Shown here one piece after another: positions 4,383 to 24,020 of a stretch of 64,000 nt of DNA. The number at the start of each line of letters is the position of its first letter. Position 1 is the stretch's first letter. The notes under the pieces are model-generated. The model made no database searches. It had not been told where the DNA came from and saw only the letters and a list, made by a program, of their open reading frames with translations. This DNA comes from Puia sp. Lineage in GTDB: Bacteria > Bacteroidota > Bacteroidia > Chitinophagales > Chitinophagaceae. The stretch covers positions 595 through 64,594 of the forward strand of contig DATJWE010000230.1 of the NCBI GenBank assembly GCA_035501475.1. Direction: 5' to 3'. The translations under genes were made by a program, and so were the position numbers.

Positions 4383-4511
4383 GACATCGCCCAATCATTC
4401 AGGGTTATATTTCTGATTTCCCATAATAAAAACTAATGATTAAATTGAAGAGTGCTGTAGCACTTTCCTTTTTCCCAATTGTTGTCTTCTTTGTCAAAGC
4501 TGACCCCAAGC

Positions 4512-7475
4512 ATGCGAAGGATTGCAATCATATTCCTGTTGACCTGCCTGATCAGTGATGAATGTTTATCACAACAATATTCATTCGTTCATTATACTCC
4601 AAGAGATGGCCTGGTAAGTAACCATACCAAACTGATGTTCCAGGACAAAAAAGGGCTTTTGTATATCTCCACTGATGGTGGTCTGAGCATATATGATGGC
4701 ATACGATTTACCAACTATACTACCGATGATGGCTTAGCAACCAACATCATTAACGATATCGTGGAGATGGGAGATGACTCAGTTTGGATTATACCAAATT
4801 CTCCAAAGCTGCACTATCTGTCAAATGGACTGATCAAGGATATCGTTACTAGCGATGGATTTTATCCGGTCATCAACAAACTCATCAGGGCCAGCGACGG
4901 TTATTATTATGCGCTCGCCGACGAAGGACTGTTCCGGTTTGAAAAAAATCGTTTTGTGAAGATTGATCTTGTCGACAGCGCTGGCAAAGACATCGGCCGT
5001 TTTTTCATAAACGCAGTAGAATTCAACGGCAAGTTGCTCATTGTTACTGATCCCAATATTCATCCTTTGTCAGGACCCGGGCGACTGATCGTGTACGATT
5101 TCAAAAGTAGAAAAGCTGTCGCGGGCCAATCCCAGCTAGTTCGTTCCATCGTGGTTTCGCCGAAAGGAGATATCCTCCTCGCGACAAAAGAAGGGATTAA
5201 AAAAGTAGATGTGGCCTTCCTAAACCAGAATAAAATTCGCTTTAGTGTTTTGCCACCTGTCTATTCGACCACCGAAAATGTGCTCGCCGACTATTTGTAT
5301 TTTGATCATCAGAAAAACTTCTGGTTAAATTCACCAACAGGATTTATCAAAATAGATCCGTACGGGTTGTCAAAAACATTTTCTGTCAAAAACGGGCTCC
5401 CCGTGAACAACTATATTTCTGTTTTTGAGGACAAAGAAAATATTTTATGGTTTGCCGACGGACAAGCTGGCATCAGTAAAATGGTCAACACTCAATTTGA
5501 ATTGAATACTGAACTGAAACCGGGGTTTAATGCTAATGATGTTTATGCCGACGGGAGAACAGACAGTGTGTGGTTTCTGGATATCGCTCATAGCAAATTA
5601 CTATTGCTATCAGAAAAGGAGTCAAAGGAATTTGAATTTTTGCCCGGTGTATCCCACACCAATTTCCGTCTCATTGCAGCCAGGGGAAATAAAGTTTACC
5701 TGGCTGACCTCTTCAAAGTATTTGAATGCAGTTTTATTGATGGGAATAAGATTCGGCTCAAGGAAATGTATTCAGACGATATGAATCATGCTGTTACTTC
5801 GGGAATCACCCGAATAATGCCCGACAAATATGGCAATCTTATTCTTTCTTCCGACAGCATAACCGTGTTGCAACAGAACGGGAAGCTGATTTCTTATCCG
5901 CTTGGATATTATGCAGATAATTTTGCTCTCACAGCCGACGACAGAATTTGGGTAATTACGCGGTCCAACAGGTTATTTTTATTTCGTATTCATCCTGATG
6001 ATCAGGATCATTACCTGGAACTTCTGCACCTGTATTTCGCAGAATTGCCTTATAAAAATCCCCGGTCAATTTGTGTTGATAAAAAAGGAAATGTATGGAT
6101 AGGAACCAGGGATCGTGGACTCTTTTGCTTGTTTTTTAATGGACAAACCATCCTTTCGTGGAAACAGGTTACGACAAAAGATGGTCTGTCTGACAATTTT
6201 ATTTCTTTTCTCCATTGCGATGGGGATGATAATATCTGGGCCTGTTCGCCGGGAGGTTTGGATAAAATACAATTGACGAACAATGGTTTTTTTATTGAGC
6301 GCGTTACTGGTAGTAGTGGTCTTTATCAAAGCATTTCAAGAGTGCAGTCCAACAAAAACAATGAACATTGGGCAATATCCGGAGCAGGTGTAATCAAAAC
6401 AACAGACCATACGCTCCCAAATAATTTTCAACCGAAAATTATTTTCAGAGAAATATTCGAAGGAAAAAATAGGCTGAATATCAAATCAGCTACACCTTCA
6501 CTTTTCTACAATCAAAATAATCTAAGTTTTTCTGTGGCTGCTCCGAGTTTTATAGATGAAAGCCAGATTCGTTTCAGTTATCTGCTGAATGGAAGCAGTA
6601 ACAAAGCATGGAGCGATACGACATCTCAGGCACTGATCAATTTTGTAAATCTTTCGCCAGGGGAATATACACTCCGTGTAAAAGCCATTTTCATGAATAA
6701 CCTTTATCCTAGCCCCGAAACCGCTTACGCTTTTATTATCCATCCACCCTGGTGGCAGACCGCATGGTTTCGAATTGGGTTGGCTTTGTTATTTGTGGTC
6801 ATTGTGTGGTTAACTGTTCGTAGTTATTATCAGAGAAAATTATATCAACAACAGGTCTTATTGGAAAAACAACAGGCTGTTGATAAAGAAAGAACCAGAA
6901 TCGCTGCCGATATGCATGATGATCTCGGCTCGGGCTTATCTACGATTCGCTTCCTGGGTGAAAAAGTAAAACGAAATGTGTTCAGCGAAATAACGAGGGA
7001 TGATATTGAAAAAATGCAGCTCACTTCCATCGAACTCATCGACAAGATGAACGAGATCATCTGGACCATGAATGAAAAAAATGATTCGCTTGAAAACCTG
7101 GTTTATTATACAAGAACCTATGCCCTGGAATATTGTGCTGAAAATAATATCAATTGTACCATCCATTTGCCGGAAAATATTCCTGTCATCCCCGTAAGTG
7201 GAGAAACAAGAAGAAATATTTTTTTAACAGTCAAAGAAAGTCTTCACAATATTGTCAAGCATGCCGAAGCTAAAAATGTGGAAATTACTGTCGGGGTTTC
7301 AAAAAGCCTGGATATAACGATCAGGGACGATGGAAAAGGATTTGACAAGGACGATGATACTGAAGAAGGCAATGGCTTACGCAATATGCAGAAAAGAATC
7401 GAATCGATTGGAGGAGAAATAACCATTAAAAATGAAATGGGTGTAACAGTTGCATTGAGAACTCCGCTTGGCTGA
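4512..7475 (+). CDS. Periplasmic propeller/Y_Y_Y sensor histidine kinase (HisKA_3 type), cassette A
   Basis: Signal/TM MRRIAIIFLLTCLI and repeated two-component-regulator-propeller units. Y_Y_Y domain (IRFSYLLNGSSNKAWSD...GEYTLRVKA), TM helix WWQTAWFRIGLALLFVVIVWL, H-box RTRIAADMHDDLGSGL, and HATPase_c GNGLRNMQKRIESIGGEI. The ORF opens at 4479 (TTG); the first ATG is at 4512. Confidence 0.9.
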   Translation: MRRIAIIFLLTCLISDECLSQQYSFVHYTPRDGLVSNHTKLMFQDKKGLLYISTDGGLSIYDGIRFTNYTTDDGLATNIINDIVEMGDDSVWIIPNSPKLHYLSNGLIKDIVTSDGFYPVINKLIRASDGYYYALADEGLFRFEKNRFVKIDLVDSAGKDIGRFFINAVEFNGKLLIVTDPNIHPLSGPGRLIVYDFKSRKAVAGQSQLVRSIVVSPKGDILLATKEGIKKVDVAFLNQNKIRFSVLPPVYSTTENVLADYLYFDHQKNFWLNSPTGFIKIDPYGLSKTFSVKNGLPVNNYISVFEDKENILWFADGQAGISKMVNTQFELNTELKPGFNANDVYADGRTDSVWFLDIAHSKLLLLSEKESKEFEFLPGVSHTNFRLIAARGNKVYLADLFKVFECSFIDGNKIRLKEMYSDDMNHAVTSGITRIMPDKYGNLILSSDSITVLQQNGKLISYPLGYYADNFALTADDRIWVITRSNRLFLFRIHPDDQDHYLELLHLYFAELPYKNPRSICVDKKGNVWIGTRDRGLFCLFFNGQTILSWKQVTTKDGLSDNFISFLHCDGDDNIWACSPGGLDKIQLTNNGFFIERVTGSSGLYQSISRVQSNKNNEHWAISGAGVIKTTDHTLPNNFQPKIIFREIFEGKNRLNIKSATPSLFYNQNNLSFSVAAPSFIDESQIRFSYLLNGSSNKAWSDTTSQALINFVNLSPGEYTLRVKAIFMNNLYPSPETAYAFIIHPPWWQTAWFRIGLALLFVVIVWLTVRSYYQRKLYQQQVLLEKQQAVDKERTRIAADMHDDLGSGLSTIRFLGEKVKRNVFSEITRDDIEKMQLTSIELIDKMNEIIWTMNEKNDSLENLVYYTRTYALEYCAENNINCTIHLPENIPVIPVSGETRRNIFLTVKESLHNIVKHAEAKNVEITVGVSKSLDITIRDDGKGFDKDDDTEEGNGLRNMQKRIESIGGEITIKNEMGVTVALRTPLG

Positions 7476-7494
7476 ATTCAATAGGCAATTGACA

Positions 7495-7576
7495 ATAGAC
7501 AATAGGCAATAAGCAAATTTCGAATGGGAAGATCTTAAACATTGCCCTTGTCTGTTGCCTATTGCTTATTGTCTAT
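7495..7576. repeat. Long imperfect inverted repeat (22-nt arms, 38-nt spacer) built from CAATAGG/CAATAAG units
   Basis: The left arm ATAGACAATAGGCAATAAGCAA (7495-7516) pairs with the right arm TTGCCTATTGCTTATTGTCTAT (7555-7576) at 20 of 22 Watson-Crick positions, plus one G-U. Confidence 0.8.
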
Positions 7577-7592
7577 AACTTTCATCCTATTG
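7576..7592 (+). promoter_or_regulatory. Cassette promoter-like motif TAACTTTCATCCTATTG upstream of regulator A
   Basis: One of seven copies of TAAC(C/T)TTnnT(T/C)(A/C)TATT(G/T). It lies 32 nt before the ATG at 7625. Confidence 0.45.
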
Positions 7593-7624
7593 TCGCCTCC
7601 TGATTGTGTTACTAAATTTATCAT

Positions 7625-8251
7625 ATGATCCCCATTAAAGTTTGCATTGTTGAAGACCTGAAAGTGGTGCGTGAGGGAATATCGAGCCTGCTTGCCTTGG
7701 ACGAACGATTTGAAATGCTGAAAGCATTCTCAGATGCTGAAAGTGCTGCCAGGGAATTGCCTGCCTGGCAGCCGGACATTGTGATCATGGACATCAACCT
7801 TCCGGGAATGAATGGCATTGAGTGCATAAAAAAAGTGAAACCCATTTGTCCACATACCCAATTCATGATGTTCACCATCTATGAAAATGATGAAAAAGTT
7901 TTCGATGCGCTGGAAGCCGGTGCAAGCGGGTATCTGTTAAAGAAAACGCCTCTCTCAAAAATTGTTGAATCACTGGTTGAACTTCATGAAGGCGGTGCAC
8001 CCATGAGCATGCAGATCGCACGCAAGGTCATCGAAAAAATGCAGGGTGACAAAACAAAAGAAGATATCAGTGTTCTTACTTCACGTGAAAAGGAAGTTTT
8101 GGAATGCCTTGCAAAAGGCTGGCTATATAAAGAAATCGCAAATAAACTAAACATAACCATTGGAACCGTCCGGCAGCACATTCATAATATTTATGACAAG
8201 CTTCATGTACAAAACAGGACGGAGGCGCTGAACAAGTTGCTCAAGAAATAA
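7625..8251 (+). CDS. NarL/LuxR-family response regulator, cassette A
   Basis: Receiver (IVIMDINLPGMNGIE) plus GerE-type HTH (LTSREKEVLECLAKGWLYKEIANKLNITIGTVRQHIHNIYDKLHV). Confidence 0.95.
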   Translation: MIPIKVCIVEDLKVVREGISSLLALDERFEMLKAFSDAESAARELPAWQPDIVIMDINLPGMNGIECIKKVKPICPHTQFMMFTIYENDEKVFDALEAGASGYLLKKTPLSKIVESLVELHEGGAPMSMQIARKVIEKMQGDKTKEDISVLTSREKEVLECLAKGWLYKEIANKLNITIGTVRQHIHNIYDKLHVQNRTEALNKLLKK

Positions 8252-8269
8252 AAAAAAATTCACTACCGG

Positions 8270-8289
8270 TTTGAACCTCCGGGTTCAAA
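8270..8289 (+). terminator. Hairpin after regulator A (terminator-like, weak T-tract)
   Basis: TTTGAACC-tccg-GGTTCAAA, an 8-bp perfect stem 19 nt past the stop codon. Confidence 0.35.
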
Positions 8290-8365
8290 TGAAGGGATAT
8301 TTTATGCCTGCCCGTATCTCATGAATCCGTTGTTACGACTAACTCAATCACCATATAAACACAAC

Positions 8366-10387
8366 ATGAAAAACATCTTTCTTTTTTTATTTTTTTCAGC
8401 CTGTTTGTCGTCGATTCGGTCGGCAGGCCAGCAACCTCCAAAAGAAGATGCCCAAGCTATACTGGCCAGGGCACAGAAGATGCTGGACTCTGTGGCAAAA
8501 GCCAGGGGAATAAAAAGTCCTGATTTAAAAAGCATGACTGCTAACATGCCTAGTACGATGGGAACAAGTTTATCCAAACCCGACAGCCTTAAGTATTCCA
8601 TTCCACCGAGAAACGAAGGAGCACTTGCAGCCATTCCCCAAAAAACGTTATCGAAAGATGATTTAAAAAATTTTATCACAGGAGTCGATAAAAGATTGAC
8701 TGACATTCTCAAAAACGCAGGTGCTCAACTCCCCAATGTAGAATCATACGATGCAGGCACTTTATGCCAGGGAGCGATTATGAATCTCTTGCAAGGTGGT
8801 GGTGACGAAACCGCATGGCTGGCCATAAAAGCTATAGAAAAGGCTCCCGGAAATATTCTCGTCTTAAATAACTGCGGAGCCGTTTTAAATGGTTGCGGTT
8901 TTCAGCCCGTTGCTGTCCCTGTATTGCAAATAGCGCTGGACAAATCACCCAACAATAGCACCATTCAAAATAATTTGGGGCAGGCCTATATTGCATTGGG
9001 TGACGTACAAAAAGCGATGCTATATCTTCAGCAGTGTATCACAAAATCACCCCAAAATCCTCACGCCAATTTTTCGCTGGCTTGTATTTACAATTCAAGA
9101 GGAGACAAGGCCTCTGCATTAAAGTATGTTGAAAACTCTTTGCGCGGATCTTTCTCCGATGGCGCCTGGCATCTCCTTTACAAATTGAAAAAGGATCCAA
9201 AACTGATGGACTATATGAAAGATCGCTACCAGCAGCCAGTATATTTTGATGAAGACAAATATCACCTGCCGATGCAGTGTGAAAAAGTAGCCGACATTGG
9301 TGACAAGCAGGGTGAATATAAAAAATATCACACGATGGTTGAATCTGCCAAAAGACAAATGATGCAGATAGCAAATGAAGAAATGGAACTTGGAAAAAAA
9401 TCAATGCAGGAAAATATACAGAACTCAAGACAAAGCAATATTGCCAATGCGCCTTTTGCAGAATTGGGAAGCGCCATGCTGCTGGATATCTCGAACAAGA
9501 TGACAGAAGATGGGGGCCCTGAGATTGGTAAAAGACAAAAGGAATATAGGGACTCAATAAAAAGTCTGAATGACGAATACCTGAAGAAAAGAAACAATGC
9601 GCATTCCTGTCAGGAAGAAACAGGCCTGGCAAATCAATACATGGAGAAGATGGCTTTTGTCACGACGGAATACCAGAAAGCTTATCTGAGAATCTATAAA
9701 GATTATTATACTGATAATATTTTCTGGGGATTTTTTGCATATCCCGATGAACATATTAAGAAAGGCTTTTTTTGCAAATATGCGGCGAGCCTACTGGCTG
9801 TATTATCCCAACTTGCGGAAACCCATTTTTTAACCACCTGCGAAGCGCCTCCTGAAGTAGAAAAAGACACTGATAAAGTAGAAATACCTCGGCCTGATTG
9901 CCCAATCAATGTCGACCTGAATGTGATTGTTGGAAGCCTGCATCTTGATTGTGAAAAAATAAAATTCAGCACAAAAAGAGAATTTGGTGAAATAGGATTG
10001 CTCTTGGATGTAGAACATACATTCAATAAACACAGAACCACTATTGTAGTCGGCGCCGGGGTGGATGTGACTTTTGAAAAATCAGTAGGTAATCTCAAGG
10101 GAGAAGCGAGTGCAGCAGGAAAAATGCAATACTTCCTGACATTCGACGGAACCAGGCCTGCAGACATGGGCATGATCTGGAAAGGGGGAGTTTCATATAA
10201 GGAACAAATAACGAATGATTACGGTTTCAAAAACATTACTACGACAGATGCAGACTATACGATGACGACTACGTTAAGTGTGGTCAACGGATATGGTTTC
10301 GAAGGGGGAATTTATAAGCAGATAGATAAGGTCATGGGTATTCCTCCTGAGAAACAGATGAACCAGAATGTAAAAATCTACAAATAA
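8366..10387 (+). CDS. Exported TPR / coiled-coil protein with a Cys-bracketed beta-rich C-terminal domain (function unknown), cassette A
   Basis: Signal peptide MKNIFLFLFFSACLSSIRSAGQ at the internal ATG 8366. TPR units (NNLGQAYIALGDVQKAMLYLQQCITKSPQNPHANFSLACIYNSRGDKASALKYVENSL) and a K/E/Q-rich helical middle. The C-terminal domain starts at CPINVDL...LDCEKIKF. It is a full-length paralog of 20776-22869. Confidence 0.8.
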   Translation: MKNIFLFLFFSACLSSIRSAGQQPPKEDAQAILARAQKMLDSVAKARGIKSPDLKSMTANMPSTMGTSLSKPDSLKYSIPPRNEGALAAIPQKTLSKDDLKNFITGVDKRLTDILKNAGAQLPNVESYDAGTLCQGAIMNLLQGGGDETAWLAIKAIEKAPGNILVLNNCGAVLNGCGFQPVAVPVLQIALDKSPNNSTIQNNLGQAYIALGDVQKAMLYLQQCITKSPQNPHANFSLACIYNSRGDKASALKYVENSLRGSFSDGAWHLLYKLKKDPKLMDYMKDRYQQPVYFDEDKYHLPMQCEKVADIGDKQGEYKKYHTMVESAKRQMMQIANEEMELGKKSMQENIQNSRQSNIANAPFAELGSAMLLDISNKMTEDGGPEIGKRQKEYRDSIKSLNDEYLKKRNNAHSCQEETGLANQYMEKMAFVTTEYQKAYLRIYKDYYTDNIFWGFFAYPDEHIKKGFFCKYAASLLAVLSQLAETHFLTTCEAPPEVEKDTDKVEIPRPDCPINVDLNVIVGSLHLDCEKIKFSTKREFGEIGLLLDVEHTFNKHRTTIVVGAGVDVTFEKSVGNLKGEASAAGKMQYFLTFDGTRPADMGMIWKGGVSYKEQITNDYGFKNITTTDADYTMTTTLSVVNGYGFEGGIYKQIDKVMGIPPEKQMNQNVKIYK

Positions 10388-10395
10388 AGAAAATC

Positions 10396-11502
10396 ATGCG
10401 TAAAATATTTTTATTGATTTTATTCTTTTCTTCTGTGAATTGCATACTCGCCCAGGAAGCCTGCAATGATGCGCTTATCCTCCAGGTCAAAGGCAGTTGG
10501 AAAAAAGACCCTGATGCAAACATGAATGCCGGTAAAAATATAACTGTTATCAATAATCGAATTGACAATATCAGCGAGCTTTTTAAAACAGCATACCCGG
10601 ATCCAAGAGGAATTGAAGCGAAATGGTACCGAAGCATGGGAGCCTACCAAATCAACAAGAAAATAACTGCTTACAGCTTTCAATCATTGTATTTACCCTG
10701 GTATTGCAACCAACACCTGAAAAAAATGATGAAAAGTGACGAAACCGGAACCTGGGTCATTGTATCTGTCAACAGTTTCGGCGATTTCTTAACTGACCAA
10801 TACGATATGCTTCAAATACATGTTCATGAAAATCCTGTATACCTGTTGCCCAAACAAAATGGTGAATGGAAGGGTTATCCACTGTATCAAACACGTGCGT
10901 GGCGGGAAAGAAATTATTGCATTATTATTATGCATGAAGGGCAATTGCCCTGGAAAGCCATCACCCAGGAACAATACCTGAAAGCTATCCGGGCACAATG
11001 GGAAGAACAAAAAACCAAATTATCCGCCGGTTATGCCATCAATGAAGACAATCTAAAAAAATCAATTGCCGATAATGAAAAGAATCCCAACCTAAAAGAG
11101 GCAGACAAAGAAAAAATAAATGCATCCCTGCAGAAGCAATTGGAGGAAATTCAAAAAGAAGAAAAGGAAAATGCACCGAAAATGAACAAAGGTATGGATG
11201 ACAAAATCGCTGTAATTGATAATTATTTAAGTAAAACAAACTCTTCGACTCTCCAGGGGCCGGCAATCATGGATCGAAATACGGCCGGAGATTTTAGAGG
11301 AACATTTTCTACGGATGCAACAAAAGGAATTACACTTGTAACAGTTAACCCGGATTACTTCGATAACAAATTGCCTGACTATACGCCGCAACTAATGGTT
11401 CTGCTCTGGCGTTGGGACAATAATGCGCCATCGATGGATTTTAAAAAACAATTCGAAGAAAATTTCCCCGTTGAAAAATTAAGAGCCATGCTCGATAAAT
11501 AA
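10396..11502 (+). CDS. Exported hypothetical protein (368 aa)
   Basis: Signal peptide MRKIFLLILFFSSVNCILAQ and an 8-nt gap to the upstream gene. It has a central K/E-rich helical segment and no domain I recognise. Confidence 0.7.
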   Translation: MRKIFLLILFFSSVNCILAQEACNDALILQVKGSWKKDPDANMNAGKNITVINNRIDNISELFKTAYPDPRGIEAKWYRSMGAYQINKKITAYSFQSLYLPWYCNQHLKKMMKSDETGTWVIVSVNSFGDFLTDQYDMLQIHVHENPVYLLPKQNGEWKGYPLYQTRAWRERNYCIIIMHEGQLPWKAITQEQYLKAIRAQWEEQKTKLSAGYAINEDNLKKSIADNEKNPNLKEADKEKINASLQKQLEEIQKEEKENAPKMNKGMDDKIAVIDNYLSKTNSSTLQGPAIMDRNTAGDFRGTFSTDATKGITLVTVNPDYFDNKLPDYTPQLMVLLWRWDNNAPSMDFKKQFEENFPVEKLRAMLDK

Positions 11503-11511
11503 AACCTTCAA

Positions 11512-12882
11512 ATGAAATTAGTCATCTTCCTCATTGCAACAATTCTTTCCATGACAGATATATGCGCACAAAAAGAAAAATTTGATATCGCTAGTTTCAT
11601 TCCTCCAAAAGGATGGCAGCGCTTGGACTCGAATGGAATGGTCCTTTTTCAAAATATCAGAACGAATAATGGGTCAACCCGTTTCTGCCAGATTTTTTTA
11701 TTTCCGAGCCTGGCAAGCACCGGAGATCCTGCGAAAGATTTCGCTTCTGAATGGAATCGCATAGTCGTGAGAGCAACACACACTCAACAAAACCTGACCA
11801 CCGAAACTCAAAAAACTCCCGATGGTTGGATTGAAACAACCGGTTATGCCAATGTTCAGCAACAGGGAATTACTTATACCTGTATGCTTGTTTCTATTTC
11901 GGGATTTGGTAAAGTCATGAGTGTAATGGTGAACGTAGCGGGCCAGGAATTTATGGGAGAAGTGCAGCTTTTTTTTAATAATATGGATATGCGCGCTCCT
12001 GTCGTTTTGGGGGATTTGAATTCTAATCAAAAGCCCCCAGATGCGAGCACAGGAAGTCTTTCTGATTATGTATACACAGCGCCGCCCGGTTGGAGTATAA
12101 AACAATACTCGGATGGTATTGTAATTTCTGCGCCGGATCATGGGAACGAAAGATGTTTACTATCGTTATGGCCTATGCGAAATGCAGGAAGCGATCTATG
12201 GACGGATGCAAACAATATTTTCGCTGAGGTATTTAAAGGTTACCAGCCAAAAAATAATGGCTTAACACCCAACTCTATTATTAAAGGAATTTCGCCACAG
12301 GGCTGGGAATATGTCATCATCAAAAAATCAATTGGCATCAATGGATACGCGACAGTATTTGGTTTTTTGTTTGTAGCCAGACTCGGAAATCAACTGGCTC
12401 CAATCTCCGGAATATCCAAAGATCCGATGGTGAGTGCGTGTTTCGGGTTATTGCAAACAGATGTATGGCCGAAATTTTTTTACAGTCTTCAATTCAGGAA
12501 CTGGAAAAATTCCGCACCCGGCATTTCAAAGCAAATCATTGGTGACTGGATTGGCGGTGGAGCTACAGCTGCAGGCAAATTCAGTTTCGCTCCCAATGGA
12601 AGATATGCCAACGCGGAGGCCTCACAACAATATCATTCGATGTCCGATGGTGAAGTGCTTGCTACCACACAGGGATTTTTTGGAGATGGAGCTTATACAC
12701 TCAAAGGAAACCAGATAACGCTGATCAAAGACAGAGACAAAAATAATCCTGAACATGGTTATATCAGGGTTGAAGAAGAAAGCATTGACAATGGCATAAA
12801 CTGGACTGAAAAATTATTCCTGCTCAGAACATCTTCAGTTGATGGTAAGGAATACGAAGTAAGTTTAAGAAGAATGAAATAA
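11512..12882 (+). CDS. Exported hypothetical protein (456 aa) with an internal domain duplication
   Basis: Signal peptide MKLVIFLIATILSMTDICAQ and a 9-nt gap to the upstream gene. The block FIPPKGWQRLDSNGMVLF...RFCQIFLFP recurs as YTAPPGWSIKQYSDGIVIS...RCLLSLWP. Confidence 0.7.
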   Translation: MKLVIFLIATILSMTDICAQKEKFDIASFIPPKGWQRLDSNGMVLFQNIRTNNGSTRFCQIFLFPSLASTGDPAKDFASEWNRIVVRATHTQQNLTTETQKTPDGWIETTGYANVQQQGITYTCMLVSISGFGKVMSVMVNVAGQEFMGEVQLFFNNMDMRAPVVLGDLNSNQKPPDASTGSLSDYVYTAPPGWSIKQYSDGIVISAPDHGNERCLLSLWPMRNAGSDLWTDANNIFAEVFKGYQPKNNGLTPNSIIKGISPQGWEYVIIKKSIGINGYATVFGFLFVARLGNQLAPISGISKDPMVSACFGLLQTDVWPKFFYSLQFRNWKNSAPGISKQIIGDWIGGGATAAGKFSFAPNGRYANAEASQQYHSMSDGEVLATTQGFFGDGAYTLKGNQITLIKDRDKNNPEHGYIRVEEESIDNGINWTEKLFLLRTSSVDGKEYEVSLRRMK

Positions 12883-12935
12883 TATACCATATCAAAAAAT
12901 TCTTCATCATCTAAAGCAGAGCAACTCATCTTCTA

Positions 12936-12952
12936 TAACCTTCATTCTATTG
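12936..12952 (+). promoter_or_regulatory. Cassette promoter-like motif TAACCTTCATTCTATTG upstream of lipoprotein A
   Basis: A copy of the shared 17-nt motif, 43 nt before the ATG at 12996. Confidence 0.45.
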
Positions 12953-12995
12953 CTAAGGGTTTTTGTGGATAGTAGTTTTGAAAAAACCTTAGCGT

Positions 12996-14441
12996 ATGTA
13001 TGTACGACTCTTCCCCTATCGGTTTTCCCTCTTTACAGTCATTCTGTTTTTAATAAGCGGATGTATAAAAAATAATATCACAGGCACAAATTCAGGCACT
13101 CCGCCTCAACAACCACAAGCCACATCAGTTGGAACAACAACCGGTGATCAGGTTAGCCAGGTAATAGGACCAGGTGGTGGCTCGATTGCTTCCAGCGACA
13201 ATAGTGTTGAACTGGTAATTCCGGCCGGCGCATTGAGTTCTAGTACAACAATTACAATGCAACCCATTACCAATAATTGTCCGGGTGGACTCACTACAGG
13301 ATTCAGGTTTGGCCCCGATGGCTTGCACTTCAATCAGCCTGCCACAATGAAAATACATTACACCGCTGACATCCTTGGCAGCGCGTTCTCTGATTTCATG
13401 GGTATAGCATATCAGGATTCAAGCGGATATTGGCACAGAATAAAAGAATTGACAAATGACACCGTGAACAAAGTACTCACTGCAACCATTAAACATTTTA
13501 CTGACTATGCGCCATTTTCTTTGCTCATAATACATCCTCCTGCTGCCACGTTAAGACCAACCCAAACACTGAATTTGCAGGTACAGGTCGCCGAATCAGA
13601 TGATGATGATCTCCCTCCATTGTCCGGGCCCGATGGTCCTCCGGATGTCACTGCTGATCCTTACATCATTGTTTACAAAGACGGGAAATGCAACTGGGAG
13701 ATCAATGGTGGTCAGCAAAGCGCAAGCGCCGGCCAGTTTATTACAGATAACGGAACACTTAATATCACTTATCAGGCGCCTGACCAGGTACCGCAAACCG
13801 GCAATCCGGTAGCTGTGTCAGCAACAATTGATATGGGAGGAATGAAGTTGGACGGAAAAAAATACAATAAAACAATCCTTGTTTCTAATATCACCATCTC
13901 CGACAAATTGGTTTACCAGGTAGATCTTAAAATGGATGATGACGGGACTGGCGAATCGCCGAGTGGAACATTAAATGTCGAGTACAGAGATGAAGTCACA
14001 TTTAAATTGACAATGGTTTATGCCGTCAATCAGGGTGTCGATACAGCTATTTTTTCAGATATCCAAAACCAGGCGCCGACGATCGATCCATCATATTACC
14101 AGGACAAGAGTGGTTGTTCATCCTGCTCGGTAACTTATACCTGGCAATCGGATCCCAACGGCATGATAAATATTGATGGCGGGCATGGTATTGGAACTTC
14201 AGGACCCCAGGGTGAAAACATATCGCTCACTTTTAGTGGTAACGGAACATCCCCCAAATGGCAAACTGTAATTTGCGGCGATTTTGGCTGTGCAACCTCC
14301 TATTCAGGAGGAACTTCTTCCGGTAACTTTCCTTATGGCATGGAGTTTACAGATACAAAAGAACAGCAGAGCGTAGTACTTACTTCAAATCCTGTCAGCG
14401 GCCTTCCTGTAATAACAGCGGCAATAACACCACAACATTAA
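12996..14441 (+). CDS. Lipoprotein with an N-terminal ZU5-like domain ending in HFTD (function unknown), cassette A
   Basis: Lipobox LISGC at C23. GPGGGSIASSDNSVELVIPAGAL...FRFGPDGLHFNQPATMKIHY...IAYQ...TATIKHFTDYAPF fits the ZU5 pattern as I remember it. It is a paralog of 19081-20502. Confidence 0.75.
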   Translation: MYVRLFPYRFSLFTVILFLISGCIKNNITGTNSGTPPQQPQATSVGTTTGDQVSQVIGPGGGSIASSDNSVELVIPAGALSSSTTITMQPITNNCPGGLTTGFRFGPDGLHFNQPATMKIHYTADILGSAFSDFMGIAYQDSSGYWHRIKELTNDTVNKVLTATIKHFTDYAPFSLLIIHPPAATLRPTQTLNLQVQVAESDDDDLPPLSGPDGPPDVTADPYIIVYKDGKCNWEINGGQQSASAGQFITDNGTLNITYQAPDQVPQTGNPVAVSATIDMGGMKLDGKKYNKTILVSNITISDKLVYQVDLKMDDDGTGESPSGTLNVEYRDEVTFKLTMVYAVNQGVDTAIFSDIQNQAPTIDPSYYQDKSGCSSCSVTYTWQSDPNGMINIDGGHGIGTSGPQGENISLTFSGNGTSPKWQTVICGDFGCATSYSGGTSSGNFPYGMEFTDTKEQQSVVLTSNPVSGLPVITAAITPQH

Positions 14442-14481
14442 TACAAAGCTTTCCCCAAATCCATTCTAAAATAAAATCGTT

Positions 14482-15141
14482 ATGAAAAAAATATTCCTCT
14501 TCTTATTGATCTCAACACCGCTGTTTGTATTCAGCCAGAAGGACAGCGTAACCACTGCAAAACAAAACCCCAACGCGAAAACCACTTATTTCGGAGTCAA
14601 GGCCGGGCTTAATTTCTCCAATGTCACCAATGCCTCTTCTATCAGCGCCAGCAATCAGACAGGCTGGCACGCGGGAATCCTCGCTAATCTCGGAGGCAAA
14701 CTAATCTGTTTCCGGTTGGAAGTATTGTATTCCCAACAGGGATATGGTTATTCCACCGATTCCTCTTCAGGAGCATTCACACATCAGTATATTTCGATGT
14801 CGCAATTGATCGGCATCAACATCACTCACTTTGTACAGTTGCAATTCGGCGGACAAACGGGATACCTGCTTAATGCAAAAGCGACGAACAAGACCTCTAC
14901 AGGAAATGCAACTGCGGATAATATCCTGAGTTATTATAATCGTTTTGATTATGGCTATGGTGGAGGGATTGAAATCCATCCGATCGCGGGCCTGCTGATC
15001 GGAGCCAGGTATAATATCAGTTTGTCCAATTTGTATAATAATACATTTTCCACTTCATCAGGCGGATCCTATAGCACTTCTACACCCAGCATCGATTTCA
15101 AAAATAACGTGGTCCAGATTTTTGCGGGTTGGAAATTTTGA
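14482..15141 (+). CDS. Small outer-membrane beta-barrel (porin-family / OMP_b-brl_2-like), cassette A
   Basis: Signal peptide, then FGVKAGLNFSNVT...GARYNISLSNLY...VQIFAGWKF with a terminal aromatic residue. It is a paralog of 24074-24760. Confidence 0.8.
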   Translation: MKKIFLFLLISTPLFVFSQKDSVTTAKQNPNAKTTYFGVKAGLNFSNVTNASSISASNQTGWHAGILANLGGKLICFRLEVLYSQQGYGYSTDSSSGAFTHQYISMSQLIGINITHFVQLQFGGQTGYLLNAKATNKTSTGNATADNILSYYNRFDYGYGGGIEIHPIAGLLIGARYNISLSNLYNNTFSTSSGGSYSTSTPSIDFKNNVVQIFAGWKF

Positions 15142-15189: not shown

Positions 15190-15219
15190 AATGCTGAATG
15201 TATTTGTGCGTTCAGCATT
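15190..15219 (+). terminator. Hairpin after OM barrel A (terminator-like)
   Basis: AATGCTGAA-12 nt-TTCAGCATT followed by TCGCGTTT. Confidence 0.35.
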
Positions 15220-15315: not shown

Positions 15316-18300
15316 TTGGAAGCGCTTGTGAAAAAGAATCTCTTCGCCTGGATTCTGCTTTTCCTATTGGCATCATCTTTCCATGATGCGATTGCACAGC
15401 AATACCCGCTTTTTTATTATACGCCCAACGAAGGGCTGATCAACAGCCGCGTCAGGAATATCAAGCAGGACAGCCGGGGAAGAATTTACTTTATTACGTA
15501 CGGCGGACTGAGCGTGTATGACGGAACGCGCTTTACCAATTATGGACAGCAGGAAGGACTGGCCAACGAACTGATCAACGATGTGGTTGAAGTAGCGCCG
15601 GATTCATTGCTGGTTGCCACAAATACACAAAAATTAAATACGCTGGTGAACGGAAGAATCGGTGTCTATGAGACAGCCGATCATTTTTGTCCGCTCATTA
15701 ACCGGATGGTTAAAAGCAACGATGGCCCTTGGTATGCTGCTTCCGACAATGGTTTTTTTGTTTTGGATCAACACAAATTCTCTCGGCTCCCCTTTATTGA
15801 CTCAACGGGGAATGATATCGGCGTTGATCTCGACAATTTCATCGAATACAAAAATTTCTTCCTGGTCTCGCCCTGGAGAACCGATCTGAAACAGAAACTA
15901 ATCCTTTACAACAAACAAACCCGTAAAATCACTTATGTGTATTCGGGTGAACAGGTTATCTCCATGATCCGGGATTCCCGTGGCAGGATCTGGGTCAGCC
16001 AGCCTGATGGAATCGGGTTGATCGACACGGTACAACTTGAAGCGGGAAAAATCAGTATCGTTGATCCGCCGGAAAAATATGCAGCATTTAAAAAAACAAA
16101 AAGCGTTTCTGTTTTCTTCGATTCAAAAAACAGTCTCTGGCTCTACAATGCAAGTATCGTCGAGAAAATCTCAGCCGATGCTGAAACGGAAGTAATTGCT
16201 ACAGGGAAATCCCTGAAGGCAGGATACCTGCTCAATCTCTTTGAGGACCGTGAGGGAATTATCTGGATGGCATCGGACGGAAACGGAGCAATCAAGCTCA
16301 ACAGCACCGGCCTGCAGTTTATCACTGAACTGGCTTCGGCACCCCTGTTTGCTTCGGCCATCCGCCTGGAAGCCGACACCACCTGGCTTTTCAATGCGAC
16401 AAACAACGCAGTGTACCGTATTTTTAAAGAACAGTTGAAATTTTTCCGCGTGGCGGAAAAAATGGTAAGGCCCGGCAATATTTATATTATCGGGGATAAA
16501 ATTTTTCTTAGCGACCAGAAAAAACTGATCTGCATTAGCGGCAAAAATGATCCTAACGCATATCAACATGCGAAAATTGTAGTGGAAGTTCGCGGGGAGA
16601 ATCAATCCTTTGGCGATGGCCTGGTGGATCAGTATGGTTCCATCATCCAGATCCTGGATAGCGCCTATAATTATTTTTTAGCGGTGATCCGGAACAACCG
16701 CCTGATCGCCAGGCTGCCAATTGCAGGCCCTCCGGATCACGTCGTGACAGATAAATCGGGAAAATTATGGTTGGTGACGCGCAACAGTCACCTGATGGTT
16801 TTTTCGATTCATCCTGATCAGCCCTCCCGTTATCTTGAATTGGAAAGAGACCTTGGCACAGAATTTCCACTTTCCAATCCGAGATCAATCTGCATCGATA
16901 CAAGCAACAATGTTTGGATCGGAACACGCTTTAACGGGGTGATGAAACTTCAGGTTGAAGGACAAAAAATACATTCGGTTACCCGGTTCTCCACAAAAGA
17001 GGGACTTACCGATAATTTTGTTTATGTGCTGCATTGTGATGAGGAAAATAATATTTGGGCAGGTACGCAAACAGGGATCGATAAAATATTTTTTAAGAAC
17101 GGACATTATGTGATCAGTAACCTGAGCAGGAGTAATAATTTTTTTCAGACGATCAGCAAAATAGTTTCAGGCAGAGATCAGACCACCTGGGTAATGACAT
17201 CTGAAGGCACAATGTTCAAAATCAGATCCGCTGAATCAAGGCTGCCATCTGCTCCGCCCGTGCTCATTAGCCTATTGAATGTAAATGGCAATGCCATTAA
17301 TCAACCCCTCAATCAGTTTTCCCACGCCGAAAACAATTTATTGTTCAATGTCGCCGCTCCTTCATTCACGGATGAGAAAGCTGTGCGTTACAGTTACCTG
17401 CTTAGTGGTAGTAGCAATAACAAATGGAGTGATCCGTCATCCAATGCCAGTCTGAATTTTATTAATCTGGGGCCTGGAAAATATACCTTGTTTGTCAAAG
17501 CCCGGTTTCCGGATGCTATGTATGAACCTCAGCAAAACAGTTTCTCTTTTATCATTAATCCGCCCTGGTGGCAAACCTGGTGGTTCCGGACGTGCATGAC
17601 CGTTATACTCGCAGTCATCGTCATAGTTGTAATCAGAACGTATGTGAAAAGAAAACTGGTTAAACAACAGGCCATCCTCGAAAAACAACAGGCCATTCAA
17701 AAAGAGAGGACAAGAATTGCCACGGATATGCATGATGATCTGGGTGCAGGGCTTTCTTCCATCCGTTTCCTGTCGGAAAAGGTCAGACGAAATACATTTA
17801 GTGATATCACAAAAAATGATATTGATAAAATATTGGGCTCTTCCGAAGACCTGATCGACAAGATGAATGAAATCGTTTGGGCCATGAATGAAAAGAATGA
17901 TACGCTGGCCGATCTGCTGACTTATATCCGTTCCTACGCTAAAGAATATTGCGAGGAAAATGAAGTCAGGTGTGAAATCAAATTACCTGAAAACGTTCCC
18001 CATGTTTTTGTGAGCGGCGAGATAAGAAGAAATATTTTTCTCACCATCAAAGAAAGCCTCCACAACATTATTAAACATGCTGCAGCTTCTAAAACAGAAA
18101 TCGAATTTCATCTTAACTCCGGTCTCTCTGCCATAATCAGGGATAACGGCAAAGGTTTCGACATAAGCAAAATAAAAAAGGAAACAGAAGGAAATGGATT
18201 AAAAAATATGCGGAAAAGAATTGAATCCATCGGTGGTCATTTTGAAATATCCAACGGTCACGGTACTGTAATTGAAATCACGGTTCCGCTCTCATTATAA
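15316..18300 (+). CDS. Periplasmic propeller/Y_Y_Y sensor histidine kinase (HisKA_3 type), cassette B
   Basis: Same architecture as 4512-7475: VRYSYLLSGSSNNKWSD...GKYTLFVKA, WWQTWWFRTCMTVILAVIVIVVI, RTRIATDMHDDLGAGL, GNGLKNMRKRIESIGGHF. There is no ATG near the 5' end. The start is either TTG at 15316 or GTG at 15328 (VKKNLFAWILLFLLA). Confidence 0.9.
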   Translation: MEALVKKNLFAWILLFLLASSFHDAIAQQYPLFYYTPNEGLINSRVRNIKQDSRGRIYFITYGGLSVYDGTRFTNYGQQEGLANELINDVVEVAPDSLLVATNTQKLNTLVNGRIGVYETADHFCPLINRMVKSNDGPWYAASDNGFFVLDQHKFSRLPFIDSTGNDIGVDLDNFIEYKNFFLVSPWRTDLKQKLILYNKQTRKITYVYSGEQVISMIRDSRGRIWVSQPDGIGLIDTVQLEAGKISIVDPPEKYAAFKKTKSVSVFFDSKNSLWLYNASIVEKISADAETEVIATGKSLKAGYLLNLFEDREGIIWMASDGNGAIKLNSTGLQFITELASAPLFASAIRLEADTTWLFNATNNAVYRIFKEQLKFFRVAEKMVRPGNIYIIGDKIFLSDQKKLICISGKNDPNAYQHAKIVVEVRGENQSFGDGLVDQYGSIIQILDSAYNYFLAVIRNNRLIARLPIAGPPDHVVTDKSGKLWLVTRNSHLMVFSIHPDQPSRYLELERDLGTEFPLSNPRSICIDTSNNVWIGTRFNGVMKLQVEGQKIHSVTRFSTKEGLTDNFVYVLHCDEENNIWAGTQTGIDKIFFKNGHYVISNLSRSNNFFQTISKIVSGRDQTTWVMTSEGTMFKIRSAESRLPSAPPVLISLLNVNGNAINQPLNQFSHAENNLLFNVAAPSFTDEKAVRYSYLLSGSSNNKWSDPSSNASLNFINLGPGKYTLFVKARFPDAMYEPQQNSFSFIINPPWWQTWWFRTCMTVILAVIVIVVIRTYVKRKLVKQQAILEKQQAIQKERTRIATDMHDDLGAGLSSIRFLSEKVRRNTFSDITKNDIDKILGSSEDLIDKMNEIVWAMNEKNDTLADLLTYIRSYAKEYCEENEVRCEIKLPENVPHVFVSGEIRRNIFLTIKESLHNIIKHAAASKTEIEFHLNSGLSAIIRDNGKGFDISKIKKETEGNGLKNMRKRIESIGGHFEISNGHGTVIEITVPLSL

Positions 18301-18314
18301 CTTTAGTTATATTG
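18298..18314 (+). promoter_or_regulatory. Cassette promoter-like motif TAACTTTAGTTATATTG upstream of regulator B
   Basis: It overlaps the kinase B stop codon and lies 31 nt before the ATG at 18346. Confidence 0.45.
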
Positions 18315-18345
18315 TCATCTTTTCGTGGTAGCGTAAATTTATGCA

Positions 18346-18975
18346 ATGCAACCGATCAAAGTTTGTCTGGTAGAAGATGCTAAAGAAATACGTGAAGGCA
18401 TGATCAGCCTGCTGACTTTGGATCAGCGTTTTGAAGTGCTTGCAGCGTATACGGATGCTGAAGCAGCAGCAGAACATTTGCCTGACTGGAATGCAGACAT
18501 TGTGGTCATGGATATCAATCTGCCGGGAATGAGCGGCATTGAATGCATCAAAAAAGTAAAACGACAATGTCCCCATTCACAATTCATCATGTTCACGATT
18601 TATGAAGATGACGAAAAAGTGTTTGATGCGCTGGAAGCCGGAGCCAATGGCTATCTCCTGAAGAAAACGCCCCTTGCGAAAATCACCGATTCCCTGGTAG
18701 AGCTTTACGAAGGAGGAGCGCCGATGAGCACACAGATCGCGAGGAAAGTGATTGAAAAAATGCACATCGAGAATTTGGAAGACGACAAAAATATTTTATC
18801 TCCCCGCGAAAATGAAATCATTCAACTGCTTGCCAAAGGATTACTCTACAAAGAAATTTCGGAACAGCTTAATATCACCACAGGAACGGTTCGCCAGCAT
18901 ATTCACCGTATCTACGAAAAGCTACACGTTCAAAACCGCACCGAAGCCATCAATAAGGCTTTCGGGAATAAATAA
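18346..18975 (+). CDS. NarL/LuxR-family response regulator, cassette B
   Basis: About 70% identical to regulator A by my hand count. It has a receiver plus GerE HTH (LSPRENEIIQLLAKGLLYKEISEQLNITTGTVRQHIHRIYEKLHV). Confidence 0.95.
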   Translation: MQPIKVCLVEDAKEIREGMISLLTLDQRFEVLAAYTDAEAAAEHLPDWNADIVVMDINLPGMSGIECIKKVKRQCPHSQFIMFTIYEDDEKVFDALEAGANGYLLKKTPLAKITDSLVELYEGGAPMSTQIARKVIEKMHIENLEDDKNILSPRENEIIQLLAKGLLYKEISEQLNITTGTVRQHIHRIYEKLHVQNRTEAINKAFGNK

Positions 18976-19019
18976 CCAATAGTTTCACCCCAACCCTATT
19001 TCTTTCTCAAATCCGATGG

Positions 19020-19036
19020 TAACCTTTGTTATATTG
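19020..19036 (+). promoter_or_regulatory. Cassette promoter-like motif TAACCTTTGTTATATTG upstream of lipoprotein B
   Basis: A copy of the shared 17-nt motif, 44 nt before the ATG at 19081. Confidence 0.45.
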
Positions 19037-19080
19037 ACTCGCTTTTTTTCATCCAGTAGCTTTATCGGAAATTTTTTAAG

Positions 19081-20502
19081 ATGAAAAAAATCATAACCAT
19101 TACCATTACCTTATCCCTGATTTTATTTGTGCTCTGTTGTAAAAAAACAGACCTTCTTCCTTCGGGCAATAACAACAACAACAACAACAATAACAACAAT
19201 AATAATGTAACCCCTACTGCCACTGCTACCGGCACTCCGACCGGCCCGGCAATAAGCAAGTTCATACCATCCGGTGGCGGAAGCATTGCTACTGCCGATG
19301 GGAGGGTTGAGCTCGATTTTCCGAATGGTGCATTGCCTAATGGCGATACCATTACCATTCAAAATATTACGAACAATGGGCCCAATGGCCTGGGAGACGC
19401 CTATCGCTTTTTGCCTGAAGGATTAACATTCGCTAATCCTGTGACTGTAAAATTTCATTACGCAGACAGTGATGTTAATGGCACTATTCCCCAGTTGCTT
19501 GACATAGCATACCAGGAAGCGTCAGGCATATGGAAAGTAGCAGGAACCGCTTCTCTGGATGAATCATCGAACACTGTTAGCGTAACAACAACCCATTTTA
19601 CTGATTGGAATATTTTTACCAATTTACAAATCGAACCTGCTGACCCTATCAACCTTATTGGAGGAAACGAACTCAGGATAAATAAGACACAGGCATTTGA
19701 AATAAAGTACGTTGCTTCAACGAATGATGATGAGTTATCCGCTCCAAAGTCAGGTTCTACTACCTACAGCTCTGTTTCGTCTGAAATTGTAAACAATTGG
19801 TTAGTAAATAACCAGATCAACGGAAGCACAACATACGGAAAGATAGTCCCCGACAACACTATGAGTAGCGGATATGCTTCATGTACTTACACAGCCCCCG
19901 CACAAGTCCCGCCTTCCCAAAACCCAGTTACCATAAGTGTAAAGCTGCAGAATTTAGGTTATATCGATAGTCGTGTCGGTGCTTTCACTAATCTTTCATT
20001 GACCCGCTCGGTAAAAATCATAGGTAATGACTACACATATAATATTGTAATGAATTATGAAAATAACGAAGTTGATGGTGGCCTTCTAGGCTATCCATTT
20101 ACAGAAACGGATAAGGCTACGTTTACTGTAGTTGTAAAAAATGGAACTGATGTATCAATTACAAATATCGATAATTCGGCTTCCAGCGTAACACCAGGTA
20201 TGCAAACGGACGCTTTCAGCGGTCTCACCAGCACATTGGTCGATCCCGGTGAGCAATGGTTTGTTAGTTCAGGTTCGGGAGTAGTGTATAGTTTCCTTAA
20301 TCCACCAGCTGTCAACCTTACGATTAATTTTGATGTTAGCAAAGAGAAAGAACCAACATTTAATCGCAGTGATGGCGTATCCATTGGAGGTTATCCCATT
20401 GGCCTTGCACAACAGAGTTTCTCTTTTACGTTAAATGACAGCACACAAACATATACAGGAGATATTACATGGAATGCAACTGTAACGCCTGTCAGTCATT
20501 AA
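19081..20502 (+). CDS. Probable lipoprotein with a poly-Asn linker and a ZU5-like domain ending in HFTD (function unknown), cassette B
   Basis: Signal MKKIITITITLSLILFVLCC followed by N13. IPSGGGSIATADGRVELDFPNGAL...YRFLPEGLTFANPVTVKFHY...IAYQ...TTTHFTDWNIF aligns with 12996-14441. Confidence 0.75.
   Translation: MKKIITITITLSLILFVLCCKKTDLLPSGNNNNNNNNNNNNNVTPTATATGTPTGPAISKFIPSGGGSIATADGRVELDFPNGALPNGDTITIQNITNNGPNGLGDAYRFLPEGLTFANPVTVKFHYADSDVNGTIPQLLDIAYQEASGIWKVAGTASLDESSNTVSVTTTHFTDWNIFTNLQIEPADPINLIGGNELRINKTQAFEIKYVASTNDDELSAPKSGSTTYSSVSSEIVNNWLVNNQINGSTTYGKIVPDNTMSSGYASCTYTAPAQVPPSQNPVTISVKLQNLGYIDSRVGAFTNLSLTRSVKIIGNDYTYNIVMNYENNEVDGGLLGYPFTETDKATFTVVVKNGTDVSITNIDNSASSVTPGMQTDAFSGLTSTLVDPGEQWFVSSGSGVVYSFLNPPAVNLTINFDVSKEKEPTFNRSDGVSIGGYPIGLAQQSFSFTLNDSTQTYTGDITWNATVTPVSH
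19168..19206 (+). repeat. AAC/AAT trinucleotide tract encoding 13 consecutive Asn
   Basis: The sequence is aat(aac)6aat(aac)2(aat)3, in frame within 19081-20502. Confidence 0.95.
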
Positions 20503-20647
20503 TTATCCGGCAGGTATTTTAGGTTTTGAAAATTAATAAAACCATTTTTAAAATCTGCTGGTTCATCAACTTTTAATTAAAAACGGGCCGTACCCTTTCT
20601 CCAAATACAATTCTTTGAAAATTTCAATTTTTCGAAAAAGCAGATGA

Positions 20648-20664
20648 TAACTTTTGTTCTATTG
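20648..20664 (+). promoter_or_regulatory. Cassette promoter-like motif TAACTTTTGTTCTATTG upstream of the TPR protein B gene
   Basis: A copy of the shared 17-nt motif. Confidence 0.45.
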
Positions 20665-20775
20665 TGATTCTTCATAGCAGAATCTATTTTTATCAGGGCT
20701 GAATATCCAAATGAAATCGACCAGCAAACTCTCCCGTGATCTTTTTAACTACGAATGCTAAAAAACAAAGAAGGC

Positions 20776-22869: not shown

Positions 22870-22874
22870 CGGCA

Positions 22875-23951: not shown

Positions 23952-24020
23952 AAAGGCTTTGTGCAGTTAAGGTATAATTTCCTTGTGGTTCCTTGCCATC
24001 AGGCCCGAATTTTTGCCCTT

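Follow-up and report, generated by a model that had tools for sequence, protein, structure and literature searches.

Does a small bacterial lipoprotein cut its own polypeptide chain and then hold on to both pieces? The question is raised by a stretch of DNA of 64,000 nucleotides (nt), hereafter the window, from a soil Chitinophagaceae, Puia sp. (assembly GCA_035501475.1, contig DATJWE010000230.1, positions 595–64,594 of the forward strand). Two paralogous genes on the plus strand of the window are concerned: W1, an open reading frame (ORF) at 12996..14441 encoding a lipoprotein of 481 amino acids (aa), and W2, at 19081..20502, encoding a paralog of 473 aa. The two proteins are 31% identical over 429 aa (BLASTP, E = 8e-41). 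An earlier note on this DNA had proposed that both carry a ZU5-like domain ending in an HFTD motif, and that this motif might be a site of cis-autoproteolysis; its ORFs, coordinates, residue numbers and peptide strings all match the translations. Judging from sequence, structural model and analogy taken together, we consider it likely that W1 is cleaved in cis between F168 and T169, which would give a non-covalent complex of an anchored ZU5 fragment and a fragment comprising an immunoglobulin (Ig)-like domain and a barrel. On the same grounds, both lipoproteins very probably belong to the autoproteolytic ZU5/GAIN-B/Nup98-C superfamily, with the Microbial Autoproteolysis INducing (MAIN) domains as its bacterial branch; an example of these is found in Bacillus subtilis YfkN (Brogan and Rudner, bioRxiv 10.64898/2026.05.12.724683). 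What the analysis itself shows is the fold, the position and conservation of the motif, the lipobox and the domain layout.

The ZU5 domain and its H-F-[S/T] turn

We assigned residues 53–176 of W1 (13152..13523, plus strand) to a ZU5 beta-sandwich by Pfam, a structural model, Foldseek and a profile search. Residues 53–126 matched Pfam ZU5 (PF00791) with 30.7 bits (E = 4e-7), above the gathering score of 21. The corresponding domain of W2, delimited by alignment to W1 (residues 58–181; 19252..19623, plus strand), scored 14.1 bits, below the 21-bit threshold. Across the family, 60 of the 91 aligned members matched Pfam ZU5 at E ≤ 0.01, and no competing family recurred. An AlphaFold2 model of W1 built on this 91-sequence alignment had a mean predicted local distance difference test score (pLDDT) of 88.4 and a predicted template modelling score (pTM) of 0.74, with pLDDT values of 95–98 in the ZU5 region. 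It comprised a signal helix, a disordered tether, two sandwiches at residues ~53–176 and ~177–301, and an all-beta domain at residues ~302–481.

When the model was compared with PDB structures using Foldseek, ranks 1–15 were all ZU5 structures, including ankyrin-B ZU5-ZU5-UPA-DD (4d8o; E = 1.7e-7) and UNC5b (E = 2.8e-5); the isolated ZU5 of ankyrin-R (3f59) gave a target-normalised template modelling (TM) score of 0.63–0.64. In the long alignments to ZU5-UPA proteins, the query-normalised TM score was ~0.23, and the ZU5 part alone superposed. A profile made from the ZU5 domain only, searched against PDB sequences, retrieved ankyrin-3, -2 and -1, ZO-1 and UNC5B at E = 2e-5 to 0.09. The ZU5-like fold put forward in the earlier note is thus upheld by a Pfam match above the gathering score and by the leading Foldseek ranks, and the assignment of the N-terminal domain of W1 to ZU5, as read from sequence and model, is solid.

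The motif itself spans H167-F168-T169-D170 in W1 (13494..13505, plus strand), where motif search, model and conservation place the predicted scissile bond at F168–T169 (between 13499 and 13500). In W2, the homologous motif is H172-F173-T174-D175 (19594..19605, plus strand), with the predicted bond at F173–T174. The two HFTD sequences occupy homologous positions, and a six-frame search of the window for HF[ST][DE][WYF] returned exactly two sites, at 13494 and 19594. In the W1 model, H167 closes strand 160–167, F168–T169 forms a turn, and residues 170–175 make up the last ZU5 strand. The H-x-(S/T) of GAIN and bacterial MAIN domains sits in "a conserved beta-turn" (10.64898/2026.05.12.724683). 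This placement, in a turn preceding the last ZU5 strand, matches the arrangement in self-cleaving ZU5/FIIND domains, with PIDD, CARD8 and NLRP1 cleaving at this point.

We then asked how far the motif is retained among homologs. One of our alignments (A2) left out motif-less members, so that its "invariant His" is biased, and all statistics given here were obtained from unselected sets. In an unselected alignment of 122 members, conservation of the motif far exceeded the mean column identity of 21%: H and F were each found in 110 members, with L replacing F in another 9, and S or T in 114 (S 80, T 34); D followed the motif in 92, and the next residue was aromatic in 112. In a larger set of 280 domains from 265 proteins, 257 carried H-x-[S/T], comprising HFS (189), HFT (60), HLS (6) and HLT (2). 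Among the 148 columns of the domain, F ranked 9th and H 11th in conservation. The strand that would follow the cut also has a conserved pattern, D-[WYF]-x-x-[FVLI]. Conservation of HF[ST] across homologues, which the earlier note had named as a check, was therefore found in both sets, and each computational check suggested there gave a supportive result.

The way in which the motif varies is also informative. Of the 259 domains retaining His, 257 had S or T at the nucleophile position and two had Gly. Counted jointly, His and S/T were both present in 257 domains, His only in 2, S/T only in 3, and neither in 12 (Fisher p = 1.4e-16 for joint loss, with no correction for phylogeny). At the level of sequence, this restriction to S/T and the joint loss of the two residues are what a catalytic pair predicts, and not a purely structural turn.

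Some relatives (P0121, P0122, P0131, P0148 and P0193) have 3–6 tandem ZU5 domains. P0148 and P0193 keep HF[ST] or HLT in each complete ZU5 repeat, which would imply multiple cuts in one chain. P0121 and P0131 have repeats with Gly at the nucleophile position (HAG, WFG, RFG, AFG), and these repeats are presumably inactive.

The N-terminal anchor and the C-terminal parts complete the layout. W1 begins with a signal peptide and the lipobox LISG-C23 (12996..13064, plus strand; MYVRLFPYRFSLFTVILFLISGC), identified from the sequence, a model helix at residues 6–21 and the conservation of the Cys. Cys23 was kept in at least 90% of alignment A1, which like A2 includes W2, and a crude pattern found a lipobox-like site in at least 150 of 206 single-domain relatives. 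W1 thus has the lipobox and invariant Cys by which a lipoprotein is recognised from sequence. In W2, the box is an atypical FVLCC, and the lipidation Cys would be Cys19 or Cys20. The anchor of W1 is followed by a low-complexity tether (residues 24–52; 13065..13151, plus strand), with low pLDDT over residues 21–40; the linker between lipid anchor and ZU5 has a median length of 22 aa in the family. The residues after Cys23 are IKNNI, none of them acidic, and those of the family are mostly K or G, so a Bacteroides-type surface-export signal is not evident. In the tether of W2, 13 Asn codons follow one another without interruption (19168–19206); antisense to them lies a poly-Leu ORF (19062–19358, minus strand) that is almost certainly an artefact.

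Downstream of ZU5, residues 177–301 of W1 (13524..13898, plus strand) form an Ig-like beta-sandwich with the signature Y-x-AP...NPV-x-VSA, as indicated by the strands of the model and by secondary Foldseek matches to titin M3 (probability 1.00) and LAR Ig1-2 (0.92). Its conserved residues are W234, A261, P262, P266, N270, V272, V274 and S275. The remaining residues, 302–481 (13899..14438, plus strand), form a divergent all-beta domain, which we modelled separately (pLDDT 87.9, pTM 0.82, 12 strands) and regard as a putative cargo or ligand-binding head. Comparison of this domain with PDB folds gave nothing significant (best E = 0.05), and its weak resemblances were to small up-and-down barrels (OmpA, avidins, haemophore). 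The median identity of the family to W1 was 40% in ZU5, 33% in the Ig-like domain and 16% in the C-terminal domain, and the alignment of most homologs to W1 ends at about residue 300. By sequence comparison, ZU5 and the Ig-like domain are a conserved stalk and the C-terminal head is fast-evolving. The division into a lipid-anchored part and a divergent C-terminal part suggested in the earlier note holds as a layout.

We also considered whether the C-terminal domain is a membrane-inserted OmpA-like barrel (match probability 0.82). This candidate was rejected, as its TM score was low (0.33) and the chain ends in ...TPQH or ...TPVSH, whereas BAM substrates are expected to end in an aromatic residue. 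A lipocalin/LpqH/TbpB-type label (DPAM, relatives) could not be confirmed for this domain.

These proteins belong to a large, wholly uncharacterised lipoprotein family. W1 has at least 120 homologs, mostly of 410–500 aa, from Bacteroidota and also from the Gram-negative phyla Myxococcota and Nitrospirota. One of them, P0001 from public metagenome assemblies, is 100% identical to W1, and several are automatically labelled "ZU5 domain-containing protein" in UniProt; an NCBIfam scan gave no family for W1 or W2. Counting 50%-identity clusters against the ZU5 profile as a whole, 22,545 clusters matched at E ≤ 1e-3 and 1,268 at E ≤ 1e-30, the latter being an upper bound for the lipoprotein family; nearly all of the 150 best-listed clusters were of this lipoprotein type.

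Self-cleavage weighed against its alternatives

If W1 cleaves itself, the course of events might be as follows. The protein would be exported by Sec and lipidated at Cys23 (Cys19 or Cys20 in W2), after which the ZU5 sandwich would fold, burying Phe168 and straining the tight H167-F168-T169 turn. The hydroxyl of Thr169, assisted by His167, could then attack the carbonyl of Phe168, and the N-to-O acyl shift would yield an ester that is subsequently hydrolysed. The predicted products are a lipidated 15.3-kDa ZU5 fragment (residues 23–168) and a 33.2-kDa fragment (residues 169–481) starting with TDYAPFSLLII; for W2, they would be 16.0 and 32.3 kDa, the second starting with TDWNIF. Strand 170–175 would remain inserted as the last strand of ZU5, so that the Ig-barrel cargo is held non-covalently and would come free later, when force is applied or the ZU5 part unfolds or is degraded. 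The anchor side would keep the ZU5 body, and the released piece would bear a new N-terminus. The chemical steps, the lasting association of the two chains, their release and the function of the protein are all inferred.

Several observations weigh against this proposal. The nearest matches, both structural and by sequence, were ankyrin, UNC5B and ZO-1, whose ZU5 domains do not cleave; structures of NLRP1, CARD8, Nup98 and GAIN were absent among the 50 fold matches listed and from the profile search. The connection with the MAIN dataset is one of fold class, motif, architecture and taxon, and none of four W1-homolog accessions was among the rows listed of the MAIN tables. Moreover, 23 of the 280 domains (~8%) have no such motif but fit the profile over its whole length; because these domains keep the fold, as also happens in the GAIN and eukaryotic ZU5 families, cleavage is not essential for folding. 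The conservation of the turn and its buried Phe could have a partly structural reason. There are also GAIN domains that fail to cleave in spite of a consensus motif. In Nup98 and CARD8, mutation at the His position has only a mild effect on cleavage, so His is not a strict predictor.

The strongest alternative is that ZU5 is a non-catalytic scaffold or interaction module, in which HF[ST]D[WY] is kept only because it makes a tight turn that buries an aromatic residue, and the lipoprotein remains a single chain. The non-cleaving character of the best matches and the good fit of the motif-less domains to the profile both speak for it. However, were the turn purely structural, A, G or N should also be accepted at the nucleophile position, whereas nearly every domain that retained His had S or T there, and His and S/T were lost jointly. 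Ankyrin also has no His at the aligned place: the alignment of ankyrin-B to the ZU5-only profile stops one residue short of it, with "TTN" against "TTH" in the family. In addition, cleavage does occur in bacterial domains that carry this motif. We therefore regard a purely non-catalytic module as unlikely, although it keeps a real share of the probability.

A second alternative accepts the cut and does away with the hold. The Ig-barrel part would dissociate at once as constitutive maturation or shedding, and would then be free in the periplasm or secreted. In the model, the C-terminal fragment would be retained by the single short strand 170–175 and any contacts between ZU5 and the Ig-like domain, and the high divergence of the cargo is what one would see in a diffusible binder. 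On the other hand, fragments remain associated in every characterised relative (GAIN, MAIN, PIDD, CARD8/NLRP1), the post-cleavage strand is itself conserved, and a lipid anchor would have no purpose were release immediate. We judge immediate shedding to be rather improbable. Finally, that the ZU5 likeness and HFT arose by chance in an unrelated beta-rich lipoprotein, as the sub-threshold Pfam score of W2 taken alone might suggest, is effectively refuted by the independent agreement of profile, sequence-to-PDB and structure comparisons and by the retention of the motif in more than 250 homologs.

The two cassettes and a possible signalling role

The gene neighbourhood bears on the role that the protein might have. 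Positions 4479–25345 of the window hold two tandem paralogous envelope cassettes on the plus strand, each opening with a Reg_prop/Y_Y_Y HisKA_3 kinase and a LuxR-type regulator (families by Pfam). Cassette A (4479–15141) consists of the kinase (4479–7475), the LuxR-type response regulator (7625–8251), a TPR protein of 688 aa (8321–10387), p368 (10396–11502), p456 (11512–12882), W1, and a small outer-membrane protein (OMP) barrel of the family OMP_b-brl_2 (14482..15141; Pfam, 5.2e-16) located 40 nt downstream of W1. p368 and p456 have no family. Cassette B (15316–25345) consists of the kinase (15316–18300) and regulator (18346–18975) immediately upstream of W2, then W2, a TPR protein of 704 aa (20755–22869), an NHL propeller (22875–23951), an OMP_b-brl_2 barrel (24074–24760), and p188 (24779–25345), which has no family. 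Between the cassettes, the kinases are 39% identical, the regulators 72%, the TPR proteins 30%, the OMP barrels 50% and the ZU5 lipoproteins 31%. Gene order differs between cassettes A and B and among related genomes. Signal-peptide-like N-termini were seen by eye in p368, p456 and the other fully read cassette products apart from the kinases and regulators, p188 lying outside this reading.

The 40-nt gap between W1 and the OMP gene has no terminator-like element, which suggests co-transcription, and the two are likely operon partners. Scans for promoters and terminators in both cassettes gave no more hits than the shuffled expectation; the promoter scan used a sigma-70 model, which does not cover Bacteroidota promoters. 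At 15190–15219, 49 nt past the stop codon of the cassette A OMP gene, there is an inverted repeat whose 9-bp arms, AATGCTGAA...TTCAGCATT, pair perfectly around a loop of 12 nt. It is a terminator candidate that lacks a T-run. The housekeeping genes on either side, encoding DXP synthase (2379–4382), a DPP-IV family peptidase (36513–38627) and GyrB (54945–56951), place the cassettes on the chromosome and outside any obvious mobile element.

We compared 33 related loci, using a six-sequence alignment as the query. Kinase–regulator homologs lay directly upstream of the ZU5 gene in at least seven independent Chitinophagaceae loci (L004 twice, L012, L014, L017, L024, L025), and a small OMP homolog lay directly downstream of it in at least six (L004, L006, L013, L019, L020, L028). 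Homologs of the TPR protein, p368 and p456 stood beside ZU5 genes in shuffled order (L004, L014, L017, L018, L024, L025, L028), and homologs of p368, p456 or p188 adjoined ZU5 genes in L014, L017, L018, L020, L024, L025 and L028. In L009, TPR and NHL homologs (81–82% identity) followed the ZU5 gene, and L024 was arranged alike. Conversely, distant homologs (Niastella vici, Dyadobacter) did not share the cassette context of the window. The term "cassette", used in the earlier note, is therefore apt within the closer Chitinophagaceae relatives and does not extend to the distant homologs. In two loci (L023, 5986–9333; L028, 1117–3754), ZU5 lipoprotein genes were paired, side by side or as ZU5-OMP-ZU5, which indicates local paralog expansion of the module.

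In the two TPR proteins, the repeats are confined to residues ~165–280 of the 688 and 704 aa; the other ~400 residues, helical and then beta-rich toward the C-terminus, had no Pfam, NCBIfam or PDB match. Given their position beside lipoproteins of the barrel type and a small OMP, the TPR proteins are candidates for a part in export or docking, Slam-like in concept, and the small OMP might share this part.

With a sensor kinase next door, one may ask whether the cleaved lipoprotein is a signalling device that feeds the adjacent two-component system. The Ig-barrel head would bind a ligand of the envelope or the environment, and its release, the emptied ZU5 groove or the exposed TDYAPF N-terminus would be sensed by the propeller/Y_Y_Y periplasmic domain of the kinase, with export or docking left to the TPR protein and the small OMP barrel. 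Such a scheme is compatible with a histidine kinase–response regulator pair remaining directly upstream of the ZU5 gene while the other cassette genes shuffle. Plain transcriptional control of the cassette by the two-component system accounts for the linkage equally well, and we regard the signalling scheme as speculative and very unlikely to be correct as drawn. If it were true, it would be a bacterial counterpart of the "cleave, hold, release, signal" logic of adhesion G-protein-coupled receptors (GPCRs) and FIIND proteins. The recurrent adjacency of the sensor kinase offers a concrete starting place for a signalling role, and the combination of a conserved ZU5-Ig stalk with a fast-evolving head suggests diversified ligand recognition.

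Comparison with known self-cleaving and non-cleaving domains

The closest counterparts are the MAIN domains of bacterial surface proteins. These GAIN-B/ZU5-like domains cut the F–S bond of HFS, as determined by Edman sequencing, in vivo as well as in vitro (10.64898/2026.05.12.724683). In YfkN, S1346A abolishes cleavage and an S-to-T change restores it; the two fragments co-purify and remain bound to each other in cells as well as in vitro (10.64898/2026.05.12.724683). W1 resembles them in being bacterial, Sec-exported and envelope-anchored, with H-F-S/T in a beta-turn. [quoted passage not shown] The listed rows of the MAIN tables contain many Bacteroidota entries of the form "ZU5 / Ig/Big_2 / Myco_19_kDa, TbpB_B_D or YceI", from the genera Chitinophaga, Niastella, Niabella, Flavihumibacter, Flavisolibacter, Dyadobacter, Fibrella, Fibrisoma and Algoriphagus (10.64898/2026.05.12.724683). 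In these entries, the three-domain layout is identical to that of W1, and several of the genera also bear W1 homologs. This lipoprotein subgroup is not discussed in the account of Brogan and Rudner. No signalling role is known for bacterial MAIN domains, nor was a link to signalling genes reported (10.64898/2026.05.12.724683).

Among eukaryotic proteins, PIDD cleaves HF/S at S446 and S588, and the FIIND of CARD8 and NLRP1 cleaves SF/S; in all of them, the fragments stay associated. W1 shares with these proteins the ZU5 fold, a site right before the last strand and a buried Phe. It also shares their polarity, in that the N-terminal fragment would keep the ZU5 body and the C-terminal fragment would carry the effector, which in W1 would be the cargo. 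Unlike W1, they are cytosolic, and a death-fold domain comes after their ZU5 and UPA. W1 is without a helical domain; a Pfam scan found no Death or CARD match in it, and a generic Ig-like sandwich follows ZU5.

Bacterial ZU5 autopeptidases had been predicted by Zhang et al. in 2012 near the N-terminus of RHS/TcdB-type polymorphic toxins, and that work extended the idea of release by ZU5 autopeptidases explicitly to bacterial surface proteins (PMC3482391). As in W1, the domain lies near the N-terminus of a secreted protein, the distal part of which is predicted to be released at the cell surface. Those proteins are very large, with SpvB, beta-propeller, RHS and toxin domains, whereas W1 has neither toxin nor RHS parts, nor an immunity gene. 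Zhang et al. give a thiol motif, "CxH", as the active site (PMC3482391), and H-F-[S/T] differs from it.

GAIN domains of adhesion GPCRs and polycystin-1 (HL/T) also have H-hydrophobic-[S/T] in a turn before the last strand and likewise "cleave and stay attached"; some members of the W1 family share their HLS or HLT. Unlike them, W1 has no helices past the signal peptide and thus no GAIN-A, and it has no Cys-rich GPS and no seven-transmembrane part; a Pfam scan of W1 gave no GPS or GAIN match. The polarity of W1 is opposite to that of GAIN and of the wall-anchored MAIN proteins, and the same as that of PIDD, CARD8, NLRP1 and the N-terminal ZU5 predicted in RHS toxins. With the ZU5 domains of ankyrin, UNC5B and ZO-1, its best structural matches at E = 1.7e-7 to 1e-4, W1 shares GG-x-hydrophobic...IP-x-GA-hydrophobic and P-x-G-x-x-F-x-x-P-hydrophobic; unlike W1, these are non-cleaving cytosolic protein-interaction modules without the His.

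In light of these systems, the statement in the earlier note that such modules are very rarely described in bacterial lipoproteins was overstated, as bacterial ZU5 autopeptidases were predicted in 2012 and HF/S cleavage by MAIN domains was demonstrated in 2026. The mechanism is not new, and its class is known and experimentally validated. What is new is the lipoprotein architecture of reverse polarity, the fast-evolving head, and the recurring presence of sensor-kinase and small-OMP genes beside it. If the predicted cleavage is true, W1 would be a compact bacterial system, of 48 kDa, in which the chemistry of ZU5 autoproteolysis and its mechanics could be studied. Hold-and-release modules would then extend from the wall-anchored giants of Gram-positive bacteria to small Gram-negative lipoproteins, in a range including Bacteroidota, Myxococcota and Nitrospirota, with the polarity of PIDD, NLRP1 and CARD8.

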